Sequence record: ON528726
Direction: 5' to 3' (one strand)
Origin: Shigella phage ESh16
Length of the DNA: 64,000 bases
Below, one piece after another: positions 31,061-37,556 of this stretch. Numbering within the stretch: position 1 is the first letter of the stretch; each line of letters begins with the position of its first letter. The notes beneath the pieces are model-generated. The model worked only from the letters and a program-made list of their open reading frames with translations. It made no database searches and had not been told where the DNA came from. Position numbers and translations under genes: made by a program.

Positions 31061-31329
31061 TGTTTGTCGTTCACACTATTTATGAAAATGAAGGTAATAC
31101 TACACGTGATTACGGTCACGTAAATCAATTTTTTAGATGCAATCCAGAATTCCGAGCTCAAAAAGACGAACGAATTTTTAAAAAATGTGTCGAGCAAGGT
31201 TTCATTTATATCAAGCACTGGATGCAAGGAAATAAAGTTAGAACTACATATCATAGGTCTTTAACTGAGCTTAATGATGAATTGATTTATAATAGAGCTG
31301 TAAATCAAACTCTGAAGGATGAACAATGA
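31060..31329 (+). CDS. Hypothetical protein (89 aa), 30.1-like position
   Basis: ORF track; coupled to gene 30. Confidence 0.5.
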   Translation: MFVVHTIYENEGNTTRDYGHVNQFFRCNPEFRAQKDERIFKKCVEQGFIYIKHWMQGNKVRTTYHRSLTELNDELIYNRAVNQTLKDEQ

Positions 31330-32786
31330 TTCTTAAAATTCTGAATGAAATAGCATCTATTGGATCAACTAAGCAGAAGCAAGCAATTCTTGAAAAGAAT
31401 AAAGATAATGAATTGCTTAAACGAGTATATCGTCTGACTTATTCTCGTGGGTTACAGTATTATATCAAGAAATGGCCTAAGCCTGGTATTGCTACCCAGA
31501 GTTTTGGAATGCTGACTATTACCGATATGCTTGACTTCATTGAATTCACGTTAGCTACTCGGAAATTGACTGGAAATGCTGCAATTGAGGAATTAACTGG
31601 ATATATCACCGATGGTAAAAAGGATGATGTTGAAGTTTTGCGTCGAGTTATGATGCGAGACCTTGAATGTGGTGCTTCAGTATCTATTGCAAACAAAGTT
31701 TGGCCAGGTTTAATTCCTGAACAACCTCAAATGTTGGCAAGTTCTTATGATGAAAAAGGCATTAGTAAGAATATCAAATTTCCAGCCTTTGCACAGTTAA
31801 AAGCAGATGGAGCTCGGTGTTTTGCTGAAGTCCGAGGTGATGAATTAGATGATGTTCGTCTTTTATCACGAGCTGGTAATGAATATCTAGGATTAGATCT
31901 TCTTAAGGAAGAATTAATCAAAATGACTGCTGAAGCCCGCCAGATTCATCCAGAAGGTGTGTTAATTGATGGCGAATTGGTATACCATGAGCAAGTTAAA
32001 AAGGAACCAGAAGGCCTAGATTTTCTTTTTGATACTCCTGAAAATAGTAAAGTTAAAGAGTTTGCCGAAGTAGCGGAATCTCGTACTACTTCTAATGGAA
32101 TCGCCAATAAATCTTTAAAGGGAACCATTTCTGAAAAAGAAGCTCAATGCATGAAGTTTCAGGTCTGGGATTATGTCCCGTTGGTAGAAATATACGGTCT
32201 TCCGGCGTTTCGTTTAAAATATGATGTACGTTTTTCTAAACTAGAACAAATGACATCAGGATATGATAAAGTAATTTTAATTGAAAACCAAGTAGTAAAT
32301 AACCTAGATGAAGCTAAGGTAATTTATAAAAAGTATATTGACCAAGGTCTTGAAGGTATTATTCTCAAAAATACCGATGGATTGTGGGAAAATGCTCGTT
32401 CAAAAAATCTTTATAAATTTAAAGAAGTAATTGATGTTGATTTAAAAATTGTAGGAATTTATCCTCACCGTAAAGACCCTACTAAAGCAGGTGGATTTAT
32501 TCTTGAATCAGAGTGTGGAAAAATTAAAGTAAATGCTGGTTCAGGCTTAAAAGATAAAGCCGGTGTAAAATCGCATGAACTTGACCGTACTCGCATTATG
32601 GAAAACCAAAATTATTATATTGGAAAAATTCTAGAATGTGAATGCAATGGTTGGTTAAAATCTGACGGCCGCACTGATTACGTTAAATTATTTCTTCCGA
32701 TTGCGATTCGTTTACGTGAAGATAAAACTAAAGCTAATACATTTGAGGATGTATTTGGTGATTTTCATGAGGTAACTGGTCTATGA
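31326..32786 (+). CDS. 30: ATP-dependent DNA ligase (486 aa)
   Basis: Adenylation motif QLKADGARCF (KxDG); MILKILNEIASIGSTKQKQAILEKN... Confidence 0.96.
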   Translation: MILKILNEIASIGSTKQKQAILEKNKDNELLKRVYRLTYSRGLQYYIKKWPKPGIATQSFGMLTITDMLDFIEFTLATRKLTGNAAIEELTGYITDGKKDDVEVLRRVMMRDLECGASVSIANKVWPGLIPEQPQMLASSYDEKGISKNIKFPAFAQLKADGARCFAEVRGDELDDVRLLSRAGNEYLGLDLLKEELIKMTAEARQIHPEGVLIDGELVYHEQVKKEPEGLDFLFDTPENSKVKEFAEVAESRTTSNGIANKSLKGTISEKEAQCMKFQVWDYVPLVEIYGLPAFRLKYDVRFSKLEQMTSGYDKVILIENQVVNNLDEAKVIYKKYIDQGLEGIILKNTDGLWENARSKNLYKFKEVIDVDLKIVGIYPHRKDPTKAGGFILESECGKIKVNAGSGLKDKAGVKSHELDRTRIMENQNYYIGKILECECNGWLKSDGRTDYVKLFLPIAIRLREDKTKANTFEDVFGDFHEVTGL

Positions 32787-32971
32787 AAGCTTACTTAGAA
32801 ACAATTGTCGTGGCTCAAAAAGAAGGTGGAGATGTTTCTACTTCTGTATCACAAATTATGATTGAATTTATAGATGCGTATGCTTATAATAAATTCACAG
32901 AAACATTTGATGCCTATGAAAAAGGTCCAAAGTTTGAAATATATCGTACTCTCTTACCAATAGATTATTAA
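32783..32971 (+). CDS. Hypothetical protein (62 aa)
   Basis: ORF track; overlaps ligase stop. Confidence 0.45.
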   Translation: MKAYLETIVVAQKEGGDVSTSVSQIMIEFIDAYAYNKFTETFDAYEKGPKFEIYRTLLPIDY

Positions 32972-32992
32972 AGGCCTTCGGGCCTTTAATTT

Positions 32993-33000
32993 TATAAATA
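32993..33000 (+). promoter_or_regulatory. Late promoter TATAAATA upstream of alt, preceded by a CUUCGG hairpin
   Basis: aaaggccttcgggccttt hairpin (32970-32987) then tataaata. Confidence 0.55.
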
Positions 33001-33023
33001 GAATAAACACTAGAGAGGATATG

Positions 33024-35117
33024 ATGGAACTCATTACAGAATTATTTGACGAAGATACTACTCTTCCGATTACAAACTTAAATCCAAAGAAGAAAATACC
33101 GCAAATTTTTTCAGTTCATGTTGATGACGCAATTGAACAACCAGGCTTTCGTTTATGTACTTATACATCTGGAGGTGATACTAATCGCGATTTAAAGATG
33201 GGCGATAAAATGATGCATATTGTTCCTTTTACATTAACTGCCAAAGGTTCAATTGCTAAATTAAAAGGTCTCGGTCCAAGCCCAATTAATTACATCAATT
33301 CAGTTTTTACTGTTGCGATGCAGACGATGCGTCAGTATAAAATTGATGCCTGCATGCTCCGTATTCTTAAGTCTAAAACTGCTGGTCAAGCTCGTCAAAT
33401 TCAACTTATTGCTGATAGACTTATCCGTAGTCGTTCAGGTGGCAGATACGTCCTTCTTAAGGAACTCTGGGATTACGATAAAAAGTATGCATATATTCTT
33501 ATACATCGCAAAAATGTATCATTAGAAGACATTCCAGGAGTTCCTGAAATTAGTACCGAGCTCTTTACTAAAGTTGAATCGAAGGTCGGTGATGTTTATA
33601 TCAATAAAGATACCGGAGCTCAAGTAACTAAAAATGAGGCAATTGCAGCATCTATTGCACAAGAAAACGATAAACGTTCTGACCAAGCTGTAATCGTTAA
33701 AGTTAAAATTTCCCGTAGAGCAATTGCACAAAGTCAGTCATTGGAATCTTCTAGATTTGAAAGTGAATTATTCCAAAAGTATGAATCTACCGCAGCTAAT
33801 TTCAATAAACCTGCTACAGCTCCTTTAATTCCCGAAGCAGAAGAAATGAAGCTTGGAATTAATTCATTAGCTTCTAAAACTAAGGCAGCAAAAATTATTG
33901 CTGAAGGAACTGCAGATGAACTTCATTATGACTATAAATTCTTTCCAATGAGTGAGGTTGGTGAAGTTTCTGAAAAAATTAAAGATGTAATTCTTAATGC
34001 GATTAAAAATGAACCAACTACTTCAATAAAATGTTTAGAAAAATACGCAGCAGCTGTTAATCAACTCTTTGAAGAATATAAAGATAAATGGCTTGATAAA
34101 CATAATAAAACCCGTAAAGGACAGCCAGATGAAGTCTGGGAAGAAATAACTAAAAATTCCTGGAACGCAGCAAAAACTAAATTCCTCAAACGAATGATTT
34201 ATAGCTTTTCTGGAATTGGTGCAGGTCCAATGATTGATATTACTATTGCCCGTGATGGTTCTAAATATACTCCATCACAAAAGCGCGGCATTAGAGAGTA
34301 TTGTGGTTCAGGATATACTGACATCAATAATCTTCTTTTAGGTCGCTACAATCCAGAACGATATGAGGTAATGAGTGAAAAAGAAATTGAATCTGCTATA
34401 AATAACTTAGATTCAGCTTTTGAAAATGGTGATCGTATACCAGAAGGCATTACAGTTTATCGTGCTCAAAGTATGACTGCTCCTATATACGAAGCACTAG
34501 TTAAAAATAAAGTGTTCTATTTCAGAAATTTTGTATCTACTTCTTTAACTCCTATCATTTTTGGACGTTTTGGAATTACACATGCTGGTATTGGTCTTTT
34601 AGAACCAGAAGCTCGTAATGAATTGACAGTTGATAAAAATGAAGAAGGAATAACTATTAATCCAAATGAAATAAGAGCGTATAAAGAAAATCCTGAATAC
34701 GTTAAAGTTCAAATAGGATGGGCAATTGATGGAGCTCATAAAGTTAATGTTGTATATCCAGGAAGTCTCGGAATAGCAACAGAAGCTGAAGTTATTCTAC
34801 CACGCGGATTGATGGTCAAAGTTAATAAAATAACTGATGCTTCTAATAACGACGGAACAACATCTAATAATACAAAACTCATTCAAGCTGAAGTTATGAC
34901 TACAGAAGAACTCACCGAATCAGTAATTTATGACGGTGACCGTCTAATGGAAACCGGTGAAGTAGTTGCAATGACAGGTGATATTGAAATAGAAGACAGA
35001 GTTGACTTTGCATCATTTGTTTCATCAAATGTTAAACAAAAAGTAGAATCATCTCTTGGAATTATTGCGTCTTGCATAGATATTACAAACATGCCTTACA
35101 AGTTCGTTCAAGGATAA
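33024..35117 (+). CDS. alt: Alt-like ADP-ribosyltransferase, copy 1 (697 aa)
   Basis: N-terminus MELITELFD; C-terminal ART motifs YRAQ (Arg), FVSTSL (STS), EAEVILPRG (Glu). Confidence 0.85.
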   Translation: MELITELFDEDTTLPITNLNPKKKIPQIFSVHVDDAIEQPGFRLCTYTSGGDTNRDLKMGDKMMHIVPFTLTAKGSIAKLKGLGPSPINYINSVFTVAMQTMRQYKIDACMLRILKSKTAGQARQIQLIADRLIRSRSGGRYVLLKELWDYDKKYAYILIHRKNVSLEDIPGVPEISTELFTKVESKVGDVYINKDTGAQVTKNEAIAASIAQENDKRSDQAVIVKVKISRRAIAQSQSLESSRFESELFQKYESTAANFNKPATAPLIPEAEEMKLGINSLASKTKAAKIIAEGTADELHYDYKFFPMSEVGEVSEKIKDVILNAIKNEPTTSIKCLEKYAAAVNQLFEEYKDKWLDKHNKTRKGQPDEVWEEITKNSWNAAKTKFLKRMIYSFSGIGAGPMIDITIARDGSKYTPSQKRGIREYCGSGYTDINNLLLGRYNPERYEVMSEKEIESAINNLDSAFENGDRIPEGITVYRAQSMTAPIYEALVKNKVFYFRNFVSTSLTPIIFGRFGITHAGIGLLEPEARNELTVDKNEEGITINPNEIRAYKENPEYVKVQIGWAIDGAHKVNVVYPGSLGIATEAEVILPRGLMVKVNKITDASNNDGTTSNNTKLIQAEVMTTEELTESVIYDGDRLMETGEVVAMTGDIEIEDRVDFASFVSSNVKQKVESSLGIIASCIDITNMPYKFVQG

Positions 35118-35120
35118 ATC

Positions 35121-37178
35121 ATGGAACTTATTACAGAATTATTTGACGGCGCTTCGGCGCCGGTTATTAACTTAAATCCTAAGCATAAAATACCTCAAAT
35201 TTTTGCTATTCAAGCCGGTGAAGAAAGCGTGCTTCCTGGATTTAGATTTTGTACATACACCTCTGGCGGTGATACAAATAAAAACGTTAAGCCAGGCGAT
35301 AAAATGATGCATATCGTAATGATAGGTGTTAATGAGAAACTATCATTAGTTAAACTTAAAAACTTGGGTGGAAATCCAATTGGTGTCATTAATGCTGTTT
35401 TTGATACTGCTCTTCAAACAATGAAACAGTATAAAATTGATGCATGCTTATTCCGCGTACTAAAAAGTAAAACAAATGGCGCTGCTCGTCAAATGCAAGT
35501 TATTGCTGACCGTTTAGTACGTACTAAAGGAGCAGGTCGATATGTTCTTTTAAAGGAAATCTGGGATTACGATAAAAAGTATGCATATATTATGGTTTAC
35601 CGTAAAAATGCCAATTTAGAAGACATTCCAGGTGTACCTCCTATTTCAACTGAGTTATTCACAAAAGTTGAATCAAAGGTTGGTGATGTTTATGTAGATG
35701 TCAAAACAGGTAATGCTGTTCCTAAAGCTGTTGCTGTTGCTGCTTCTATTGCTTTAGAAAATGATAAGCGCACGGATCAAGCTGTTATTCAGAAAACTAA
35801 AATTAGTCGTCGATTAGCAGCACAAGCTCAATATTCTACTGTCGATGCTTCACTCCAGGGCGATAGCTTCGCTGCTAAGAAATATCAAGAGTTTGAATCT
35901 AAAGTTCCGGTATATAAAGCAGAAGGACCAATGAACTCTGGCGTTATTCAGATTGGTTCAAACTTCGGCAAAGGAGCTATCGGTGGTATGAGAAGTGCTT
36001 CTCGTTTTAAATCTAACGATTATGAACTAGAAAGCTTCCGAAATCATATTGCATTGGCCCATGCACGTTTACGTGATCCGTCTATCAGACTGCAGAGCGA
36101 TATAACACATCAAGGTTCTCAAGAATATTTAAAGAATAAAGAATTCTTTGATTATAAAACCGATAAAATTTTGAGCGATCTCGCTGACATTAATATTTCT
36201 AATAGCTTTGATGTTATTAAGAAAATTATCAATGATTTAGTTAAAGGTTCTAAAGCCACACCAGACGAAAAGGTAGCTATTATTCAATTTGTCATGAATG
36301 GCATTTATAAATTGATTAATGAATCTGCTGCTCAGGCATATGAATACGCAAGCACCGAAGTAACTCCAAAAGGACTGACTCAGGCTGAGTCTGATGTAAT
36401 TGAAGATTATTGTGCAGATTCATATGTTGAAATGAACTCGTTCCTTTTAGGTAAACCAGATTCTACCCGTGAAGAATACATGGAACGAGCTATTAAACAC
36501 ATCGAGACGCTGGATTCTGCATTCGCCAAAGGATCAGTTCTTCCTCCAGGAACTACGCTTTATCGTGGACAAGAAGTTACTTTTAAAACTTTACGCCATA
36601 ATATTGAAAATAAAATGTTCTATTTCAAGAACTTCGTATCAACATCGCTTAAACCAAATATCTTCGGTGAGCATGGTAAAAACTATATGGCTCTAGATGA
36701 TTCCGGCGCAGTATTTTCTGGTGAAGGAGAAGGTTCTGTTGATGCTGAAGATTTAATGCATATGGGCAGTCATTCTGCTTATGCGAATGAAGATGCTGAA
36801 ACTAGCGTAGGTATGGTAATTAAAGGGGCTGAGCGAATCAAAGTTATCGTTCCAGGTCATTTATCAGGATTTCCATCAGAAGCTGAAGTTATTCTACCGC
36901 GTGGAATTTTGCTGAAGATTAATAAAGTAAGCACGTACATGATGAAAGAAACTGCTTATAACAAGTATCTAATCGAAGGCACAATCGTTCCTCCTTCTGA
37001 ACAATTAGAAGAATCGGTATATGATGGCGATCATCTAATGGAAACTGGTGAAGTTCGTCCAATGGCTGGGTTTAATCAATTCCTTATAGAAGAATCAAAA
37101 GAAGAGGAAAACGAAGTTTCTCAAATCTTGGCTTCTTTGGTTAACATCAACGGAATGTCTAAAAAGTTCAAGATGTAG
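35121..37178 (+). CDS. Alt-like ADP-ribosyltransferase paralog, copy 2 (685 aa)
   Basis: Same N-terminal about 230 aa architecture and C-terminal YRGQ / FVSTSL / EAEVILPRG motifs; central region divergent. Confidence 0.8.
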   Translation: MELITELFDGASAPVINLNPKHKIPQIFAIQAGEESVLPGFRFCTYTSGGDTNKNVKPGDKMMHIVMIGVNEKLSLVKLKNLGGNPIGVINAVFDTALQTMKQYKIDACLFRVLKSKTNGAARQMQVIADRLVRTKGAGRYVLLKEIWDYDKKYAYIMVYRKNANLEDIPGVPPISTELFTKVESKVGDVYVDVKTGNAVPKAVAVAASIALENDKRTDQAVIQKTKISRRLAAQAQYSTVDASLQGDSFAAKKYQEFESKVPVYKAEGPMNSGVIQIGSNFGKGAIGGMRSASRFKSNDYELESFRNHIALAHARLRDPSIRLQSDITHQGSQEYLKNKEFFDYKTDKILSDLADINISNSFDVIKKIINDLVKGSKATPDEKVAIIQFVMNGIYKLINESAAQAYEYASTEVTPKGLTQAESDVIEDYCADSYVEMNSFLLGKPDSTREEYMERAIKHIETLDSAFAKGSVLPPGTTLYRGQEVTFKTLRHNIENKMFYFKNFVSTSLKPNIFGEHGKNYMALDDSGAVFSGEGEGSVDAEDLMHMGSHSAYANEDAETSVGMVIKGAERIKVIVPGHLSGFPSEAEVILPRGILLKINKVSTYMMKETAYNKYLIEGTIVPPSEQLEESVYDGDHLMETGEVRPMAGFNQFLIEESKEEENEVSQILASLVNINGMSKKFKM

Positions 37179-37232
37179 TTTACAAGTCCCTCGTGTTGTG
37201 TTATAGTAGTCTTACTGACATAACATGAGGAA
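37178..37232 (+). promoter_or_regulatory. Early promoter plus stem-loop cassette (PeSL-like), copy B
   Basis: gtttacaagtccctcgtgttgtgttatagtagtcttactgacataacatgagga; 2 mismatches to copy A at 21727. Confidence 0.55.
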
Positions 37233-37238
37233 CACAAA

Positions 37239-37529
37239 ATGAAATCTTCTTTACGCTTTTTAGGTCAAGAACTTGTAGTTGAAGGCGTTATTCCTGCTGA
37301 TAACGCTTTTAATGAAGCAGTTTATGATGAATTTATCAAAATTTTTGGAACAGATAAAAAGTTCGGAATTTTTCCTTCTGAAAATTTTTCAAAGCCAGAA
37401 CAGACTGAAAGCATTTTCCAAGGTGTAGTAACAGGTAAATTTGAGTCAGAAGCTCCGGTAAAAATTGAAGTTTATATTGAAGACAGTTTAGTTGCTTCAG
37501 TTGCTGCTTTTATTTCATTCCGTAAATAA
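37239..37529 (+). CDS. Hypothetical protein (96 aa)
   Basis: ORF track; preceded by PeSL copy B. Confidence 0.5.
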   Translation: MKSSLRFLGQELVVEGVIPADNAFNEAVYDEFIKIFGTDKKFGIFPSENFSKPEQTESIFQGVVTGKFESEAPVKIEVYIEDSLVASVAAFISFRK

Positions 37530-37534
37530 AAATA

Positions 37535-37556
37535 TGGGGACCGAAAGGTCCCCATT
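37535..37556. terminator. Bidirectional terminator hairpin between convergent ORF 37239 and gene 54
   Basis: atggggaccgaaaggtccccat. Confidence 0.6.

Follow-up and report, generated by a model that had tools for sequence, protein, structure and literature searches.

Alt of phage T4, the closest described relative of the genes considered here, is an ADP-ribosyltransferase (ART) of the head core that is present in about 40 copies per head and is ejected with the DNA (PMC9026906), and it modifies Arg265 of the RNA polymerase alpha subunit as well as other proteins (PMC2988021). Mass spectrometry placed the cuts made by gp21 in T4 Alt after ITE-6 and LTE-619, with the removal of 63 C-terminal residues (PMC5694885). 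Duplications of alt in T4-like phages were noted by Nolan et al. (2006; PMC1524935), and the same family is expanded between the ligase gene and gene 54 in Aeromonas phage 44RR (ORF187c/188c; PMC1524935) and, with three copies, in Dhakavirus. Here we analyzed a 64,000-nucleotide (nt) stretch of Shigella phage ESh16 (record ON528726; hereafter the window), in which two adjacent open reading frames (ORFs) at positions 33,024 to 37,178, ORF1 with 697 and ORF2 with 685 amino acids (aa), occupy the alt locus (Table 1). It is likely, in our view, that they descend from an ancient duplication within the T4 Alt family, ORF1 being Alt and ORF2 representing the lineage of T4 alt.-1/alt.-2. The tandem pair as such is ordinary and already known, as the usual annotated arrangement in Tequatrovirus, T2 and T6 among them; what is added here are hybrid genes, the likeness of an ART module in Dhakavirus and a weak resemblance of the N-terminal domain to GNAT proteins.

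ORF1 is the orthologue of Alt, in the form of the T2/T6-type allele. It resembles the 682-aa T4 Alt in its position after alt.1, in the hairpin and promoter motif that precede it, in its ITE and LTE motifs and in its catalytic motifs, and block by block the two proteins are about 99% identical over residues 1–250, 20–70% identical over residues of about 250–600 and about 95% identical after residue 600. The differences lie in the centre (35% identity) and in the ART domain (63%), and the effector part of ORF1 is therefore another allele, that of the T2/T6 type. The length of 697 aa assumes a start at the second of two neighbouring ATGs, which corresponds to the annotated start of T4 Alt; from the ATG at 33021 ORF1 would have 698 aa. 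A first-pass annotation, made from the sequence of the window, had described two same-strand reading frames of these lengths, and both are present as described, except that the spacer between them is 3 nt (ATC) and not 4 nt.

In ORF2 the gene that T4 retains as the pseudogene alt.-1/alt.-2 is intact. The translation of T4 alt.-1 reproduces the N-terminus of ORF2, and two short families, phrog_23015 and phrog_15247, which we take to be the products of T4 alt.-1 and alt.-2 (the search output leaves them unnamed), match ORF2 at 6e-40 and 3e-38 and ORF1 far more weakly. At the nucleotide level T4 DNA matches the window over 35102–35468 at 96.5% and then over 37159–37252 at 97.9% (blastn), and within the first of these matches a single 1-nt gap shifts the reading frame. 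The match jumps at the 9-nt direct repeat CTAAAAAGT, and a microhomology deletion of about 1.7 kb has therefore shortened a once complete paralogue in T4; T4 and ESh16 thus hold the same lineage, shortened and frameshifted in the former and whole in the latter. In GenBank the T4 record speaks of an 'old duplication of the first part of alt' and the T6 record of an 'apparent insertion in alt.-2', and a deletion fits T4 alt.-1/alt.-2 better than either a partial duplication or an insertion.

The 4.9-kb region is 100% identical to Shigella phage ESh34, and the window is a segment of a Tequatrovirus genome. The corresponding part of the ESh34 record (ON528744.1, 127898–132798) is without annotation; in near-identical genomes both genes carry annotations. 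Coverage of the region reaches at least 80% in 353 phage records, and ORF2 is encoded at an identity of at least 95% in about 396 records. An ORF1-type Alt at that same threshold is found in about 292 records and an Alt at 60–80% identity (T4 type) in 212, while in phage G4498 a T4-type Alt is accompanied by an intact ORF2. The T4 deletion junction occurs in 91 of the 485 matching records. The pair is the majority state, and it is probably also the ancestral one, with T4 as the exception. T2, T6 and about 350–400 other Tequatrovirus records have the pair of 697 and 685 aa at 97–99% nucleotide identity and differ from the window in nothing material, and many records already label both genes as Alt-like RNA polymerase ADP-ribosyltransferase.

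The identification of both products as Alt-like ADP-ribosyltransferases, which the first-pass annotation had proposed, is borne out by the family searches: PF03496 scores 129.7 bits in ORF1 and 72.8 bits in ORF2 against a curated cut-off of 23.4, phrog_802 spans residues 1–696 and 1–685, respectively, and PF26846 together with PF03496 is precomputed for the homologues. The catalytic residues are complete in each protein, with YRAQ at 479–482 in ORF1 and YRGQ at 481–484 in ORF2, STS at 505–507 and 507–509, and EAEVILP at 587 in both; the longer strings FVSTSL and EAEVILPRG are common to the two proteins, as is MELITELFD at their starts, all in the places where they had been reported. Among 10–13 diverse homologues the catalytic columns are invariant (in ORF2 these are R482, S507, S509, E587, and E589), the YR and ExE motifs of ORF1 align with those of CDTa and iota toxin, and both proteins belong to the R-S-E clade of the ART fold, in the Alt/VIP2 group of PF03496. 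Compared by sequence with solved structures, ORF2 had no match at E ≤ 1, and NCBIfam contains no family for ORF1 or ORF2. In toxins of this class a Glu-x-Glu motif goes with arginine specificity, and for ORF1 and ORF2 we infer arginine mono-ADP-ribosylation with NAD+. The E577A mutant of T4 Alt, in the numbering of that paper, is inactive (PMC11404850). In the 682-aa translation of T4 Alt the E-x-E motif falls on E574 and E576, and the published numbering appears to be offset by one, possibly as the upstream ATG was counted.

ModA and ModB of T4 are likewise phage mono-ADP-ribosyltransferases of the R-S-E clade that act on host proteins (PMC5512222, PMC2988021). The same catalytic fold, with its R, STS and ExE, is found in the C3, iota, CDTa, VIP2, and Vis toxins, which, unlike ORF1 and ORF2, lack the Tevenvirinae N-terminal domain, the centre and the propeptides, and which are delivered through a translocon rather than by a phage head. 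ModA and ModB, for their part, are short, early, unpackaged proteins, and this description sets them apart from the genes of the window.

Since the T4 counterpart of ORF2 is a pseudogene, ORF2 might itself be a decaying or catalytically dead pseudo-paralogue. However, its 685-aa reading frame is intact in those roughly 396 records, its catalytic residues are invariant, and the ratio of nonsynonymous to synonymous polymorphism (pN/pS) is 0.044 (7 genomes), close to the value of 0.042 for ORF1 (6 genomes), which makes decay or catalytic death extremely improbable. Ratios of about 0.04 in both genes mean that neither copy is decaying and that both are under strong purifying selection. By domain, pN/pS is 0.02–0.04 in the N-terminal domain, 0.06–0.09 in the centre, 0.01–0.03 in the ART domain (0.028 in that of ORF2) and about 0.05 for the C-terminal tail, and third codon positions account for most of the variable sites (138 of 170 in ORF2, 122 of 144 in ORF1). 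We regard the pseudo-paralogue as ruled out by the intact catalytic residues and a pN/pS of 0.04; Arg, STS, and E-x-E are present in both proteins, so that neither is the dead copy for which the first-pass annotation had left room.

Over their full lengths ORF1 and ORF2 are 41% identical (BLASTP, E = 9e-157), which means that they resemble each other through homology and not by chance. The likeness is distributed unevenly, and in blocks of 30 residues identity is about 67% over residues 1–238, in agreement with the shared N-terminal part of about 230 aa noted at first pass, about 15% with many gaps over residues of about 240–430 and 40–55% in the catalytic domain, while the C-terminus is partly conserved. 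Taken as whole domains, the two ART domains are about 36% identical. No BLASTP matches at E ≤ 10 were found between the centres of the type present in ORF1 and T4 (A-type) and those of the ORF2 type (B-type) among 120 homologues, and hhalign of the two types of centre gave a probability of less than 1%. By the same methods the ORF2 centre does match other centres, with an hhalign probability of 98% for the P0013–P0015 group (including that of Salmonella phage KM16) and 46–49% BLASTP identity to homologues P0011 and JS10 P0012. A phmmer search of the ORF2 centre (aa 232–420, 35814–36380) against 1.84 billion cluster representatives returned zero matches, a null that missed even the cluster representative of ORF2 itself and therefore says only that no representative resembles the ORF2 centre; the representative of the ORF2 cluster presumably has a different centre. 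No hidden homology between the two centres thus emerged at the sequence level from BLASTP, hhalign or phmmer. With centres that are unrelated in sequence and ART domains that are only about 36% identical, ORF1 and ORF2 probably act on different host proteins, as the first-pass annotation had suggested, although this difference in target range is the least certain step of what we propose.

Exchange of parts between the two genes is documented by natural hybrids. Phage ECML-134 has a single hybrid gene of 686 aa in the interval between alt.1 and alt.-3, in which the first 470 nt or so are ORF1-like (91–100% identity) and the remainder is ORF2-like (90–100%), and the switch falls at the only 32-nt stretch that is identical between ORF1 and ORF2. 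SCS4 and PST each have a single match to the first 900 nt of this hybrid, at 93.8 and 89.3%, respectively. One hybrid gene also lies between alt.1 and alt.-3 on a 65-kb metagenomic contig, and on another metagenomic contig the switch is near nt 660. These hybrids consist of the Alt N-terminal domain followed by the centre, ART domain and tail of ORF2, and the two N-terminal domains are therefore functionally interchangeable. An assembly artefact is an unlikely source of the hybrids, given their presence in complete isolate genomes (ECML-134, SCS4, and PST) and on the 65-kb contig with differing breakpoints.

A deeper view of the same process is offered by Dhakavirus phage 04086, which has three tandem Alt paralogues. 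Its middle paralogue shares with ORF1 95% identity in the ART domain and 67% in the centre but only 46% in the N-terminal domain, and its last paralogue, in the same relative position as ORF2, belongs to the ORF2 lineage (47% in the centre, 52% in the ART domain); a third lineage is also present, with a centre that matches neither ORF1 nor ORF2. The duplication is therefore older than the split between Tequatrovirus and Dhakavirus, and effector modules have moved between the genera. The tandem alt genes of 44RR and Dhakavirus differ from the pair in the window in copy number and in module content. In the 04086 record the annotated start of the last paralogue is cut short by an ambiguous base.

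These comparisons bear on the possibility that ORF2 is simply a redundant second dose of Alt, acting on the same targets and kept for quantity. ORF1 and ORF2 do share catalytic residues, architecture and operon, and T4 is successful although it has lost ORF2. Copies kept for dosage would, however, be expected to stay similar, whereas here the centre of ORF2 is unrelated in sequence to that of ORF1 and the ART domains have only the 36% identity given above; the two lineages have been kept apart since before the Tequatrovirus/Dhakavirus split, and phages of the ECML-134 type retain the effector part of ORF2 only and not that of Alt, all of which makes a pure dosage role unlikely. A distinctly unlikely explanation, too, is that divergence of the centre and ART domain reflects escape of the injected protein from host immune recognition rather than new substrates. 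Within lineages the centre is under purifying and not diversifying selection (pN/pS 0.06–0.09), and no report of a defence system that senses Alt was found, even though immune escape would agree with the exchangeability of the modules, with T4-type and T2/T6-type Alt differing only in the centre and ART domain (35 and 63% identity), with an ORF1 ART domain that is 95% identical to that of a Dhakavirus paralogue whose N-terminal domain is only 46% identical, and with a locus that has been repeatedly gained, lost and fused.

The prohead processing signals suggest how both proteins might be delivered. The gp21 motifs near the N-termini to which the first-pass annotation had pointed are present, with I-T-E at residues 4–6 of both proteins, and towards the C-termini there are L-T-E at 630–632 of ORF1 and L-E-E at 629–631 of ORF2. 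Position 6 is a Glu without exception, even in the Alt homologues of Acinetobacter, Aeromonas, and Proteus phages, and the Glu at 631/632 and the YDGDxLMETGE motif that follows it are invariant in the family alignments. With the gp21 motifs and the propeptide motif conserved in this way, processing and packaging of ORF2 would be likely, and its presence in virions, which was also suggested at first pass, is plausible. The ModA and ModB proteins of T4, as ARTs that are not packaged (PMC2988021), provide a precedent for a different course, in which ORF2 would be made late, stay out of the head and act within the cell that makes it, its targets late in infection being, for instance, proteins of the host or of the phage. 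We give this only a small chance, as ORF2 keeps ITE, LxE, the YDGDxLMETGE propeptide motif and an Alt-type N-terminal domain, and as the natural hybrids put the ORF2 effector part behind the Alt N-terminal domain at the alt position.

The signals ahead of ORF1 are those of T4 alt. A terminator-like hairpin occupies the gap between alt.1 and alt; it is identical in T4 and is an annotated terminator in phage G4498, and a terminator upstream of alt has been reported for five of six T4-like genomes (PMC1524935). Just 3′ of the hairpin and 20 nt ahead of the first ATG lies TATAAATA, a match to the −10 motif of T4 late promoters, and T4 alt is preceded by an identical arrangement of hairpin and late-promoter motif. 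The late promoter proposed at first pass is, however, not strictly single: a second TATAAATA lies within ORF1, and ORF2 has no promoter motif of its own except for this internal match at 34397. The internal motif is kept in all six aligned ORF1 sequences (the window, ime09, T6, T2, CrRp10, and IsaacDaniel). It is possibly a chance match within a conserved coding motif, and one match in 2 kb lies within the chance expectation. It could supply a separate late transcript for ORF2, or merely encode the conserved A-I-N-N. The position of a Shine-Dalgarno-like AAGGA inside the end of ORF1 suggests coupled translation of ORF2. A scan of the region for sigma-70 promoters gave sites no more frequent than in shuffled sequence.

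Taken together, we propose that a single late message from TATAAATA at 32993 would cover both genes and that ORF2 would be translated by coupling across the 3-nt gap, as the motifs indicate. Both products would then enter the prohead core and be trimmed by gp21 after I-T-E (residue 6) and after L-x-E (residue 632 in ORF1, 631 in ORF2), a processing shown only for T4 Alt and suggested for this pair by motif conservation, to give mature proteins of about 625 residues. Both would leave the head together with the DNA and, using NAD+, modify arginines in host proteins by mono-ADP-ribosylation. The proteins would be built of modules, with a variable effector part, made up of the helical centre and the ART domain, between an N-terminal domain and a C-terminal propeptide that are both conserved.

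Several points weigh against this proposal. The literature searched yielded neither a study of what the second paralogue does nor virion proteomics that covers it. ORF2 is missing from T4 and from the 91 records with the deletion junction, and it is therefore dispensable, at least on laboratory hosts. Divergence is the whole of the argument for different specificity, and it may be less complete than it appears: in AlphaFold2 (AF2) models, which were built on shallow alignments of 10–13 sequences with both paralogues mixed and have a mean predicted local distance difference test (pLDDT) score of about 75, both centres are predicted as bundles of about seven to eight helices with similar spacing. 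The claim at first pass that the centres are unrelated in sequence holds, whereas in structure they may share a very diverged fold, which would weaken the case for different specificity.

The N-terminal domain that ORF1 and ORF2 share has weak matches to a GNAT-like fold. In the model, K118-T-A-G121-Q-A lies in the strand-helix loop between strand 109–115 and helix 123–137, the place at which GNAT proteins bind acetyl-CoA through their motif A (Q/R-x-x-G-x-G/A). The Gly (G121) never varies and conservation of K118 is at least 90%, but distant homologues have K-G-Q-E, without the final G/A. The Pfam GNAT families had no match at E ≤ 0.1 in ORF1 or ORF2, and no description of a GNAT-like Alt N-terminal domain was found in the literature searched. 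With motif A incomplete in distant homologues, GNAT activity of this domain is a weak lead. A wider reading, about which we are doubtful, would regard the Alt family as modular injected effectors, in which a conserved GNAT-like N-terminal domain, possibly acting as a second enzyme or in head targeting, is combined with an exchangeable centre and ART domain, and in which T-even phages other than T4 inject two such effectors with different targets.

The surroundings of the pair are conserved. The locus order 30/alt.1/ORF1/ORF2/alt.-3/54 is that of T4, T2, and T6, and downstream of alt.-3 follow the convergent baseplate genes 54, 48, and 29. In every inspected Tequatrovirus locus the alt genes are bordered by alt.1 (Phage_blade) and alt.-3 (DUF5498). 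Between the ORF2 stop and alt.-3, at 37179–37207, TTTACA and TATAGT are separated by 17 nt and accompanied by an upstream TG, an arrangement resembling T4 early promoters, and alt.-3 may therefore be expressed early and independently. No tRNA genes were found in the window.

Table 1. Features of the alt locus and its borders in the window, in order of position.
Feature	Position	Strand	Basis or remark
Gene 30 (DNA ligase), just before alt.1	31326–32786		ORF list
alt.1, 62 aa	32783–32971	+	PF24647 Phage_blade, E 7.5e-29; T4 order 30/alt.1/alt
Terminator-like hairpin AAAGGCC-TTCG-GGCCTTT with T-rich tail, alt.1/alt gap	32970–32987	+	Read from sequence
TATAAATA, match to T4 late-promoter −10 motif	32993–33000	+	Pattern search; motif only
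GAGAGGA, Shine-Dalgarno-like, for ORF1	33013–33019	+	Read from sequence
ORF1 = alt, T2/T6-type allele, 697 aa	33024–35117	+	PF03496, E 1.2e-37; phrog_802 over full length
ORF1 I-T-E, aa 4–6, N-terminal gp21 cleavage motif	33033–33041	+	
ORF1 N-terminal alpha/beta domain, aa 7–238	33042–33737	+	PF26846 Tevenvirinae_ADPRT; 67% identical to ORF2 N-terminal domain
32-nt stretch identical in ORF1 and ORF2, encodes WDYDKKYAYI	33466–33497 (ORF1) = 35560–35591 (ORF2)	+	ECML-134 crossover
ORF1 central all-helical region, A-type, aa 239–412	33738–34259	+	AF2 helices
ORF1 ART domain, aa 413–632	34260–34919	+	R480 at 34461–34463; STS at 34536–34544; E587-A-E589 at 34782–34790
Second TATAAATA, within ORF1, codons for A-I-N-N	34397–34404	+	Pattern search
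ORF1 L-T-E, aa 630–632, C-terminal gp21 cleavage motif	34911–34919	+	
ORF1 predicted C-terminal propeptide, aa 633–697	34920–35114	+	YDGDxLMETGE, terminal KF; low pLDDT
AAGGA, Shine-Dalgarno-like, within ORF1 end, 6 nt ahead of ORF2 ATG	35110–35114	+	Read from sequence
ORF2 = second Alt paralogue, 685 aa	35121–37178	+	PF03496, E 3.2e-20; match to T4 alt.-1 translation
ORF2 I-T-E, aa 4–6, N-terminal gp21 cleavage motif	35130–35138	+	
ORF2 N-terminal alpha/beta domain, aa 7–237	35139–35831	+	
CTAAAAAGT, left 9-nt direct repeat, T4 deletion junction	35460–35468	+	blastn, coordinates verified
ORF2 central all-helical region, B-type, aa 238–414	35832–36362	+	
ORF2 ART domain, aa 415–631	36363–37013	+	R482 at 36564–36566; STS at 36639–36647; E587-A-E589 at 36879–36887
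ORF2 L-E-E, aa 629–631, aligned to Alt LTE cleavage motif	37005–37013	+	E631 invariant
ORF2 predicted C-terminal propeptide, aa 632–685	37014–37175	+	
CTAAAAAGT, right 9-nt direct repeat, T4 deletion junction	37159–37167	+	
alt.-3, 96 aa, DUF5498	37239–37529	+	ORF list, Pfam, T4 order
Bidirectional terminator-like hairpin, gap between alt.-3 and convergent gene 54	37534–37555	.	Annotated terminator in G4498

Alt is the textbook enzyme that is packed in the phage head and injected to reprogram the host, and it has been studied almost entirely in T4, which, as a deletion variant, lacks one of two Alt paralogues that T2, T6 and about 80% of deposited relatives possess. The alt locus illustrates clearly, on a small scale, how a gene for an injected effector is reshaped by the exchange of modules, by fusion and by microhomology deletion. 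If ORF2 is packaged and has targets of its own, early takeover of the host by most T-even phages would involve an uncharacterised enzyme, and if the modular reading with two effectors were true, five decades of T4 Alt biology would cover half of the ancestral system.

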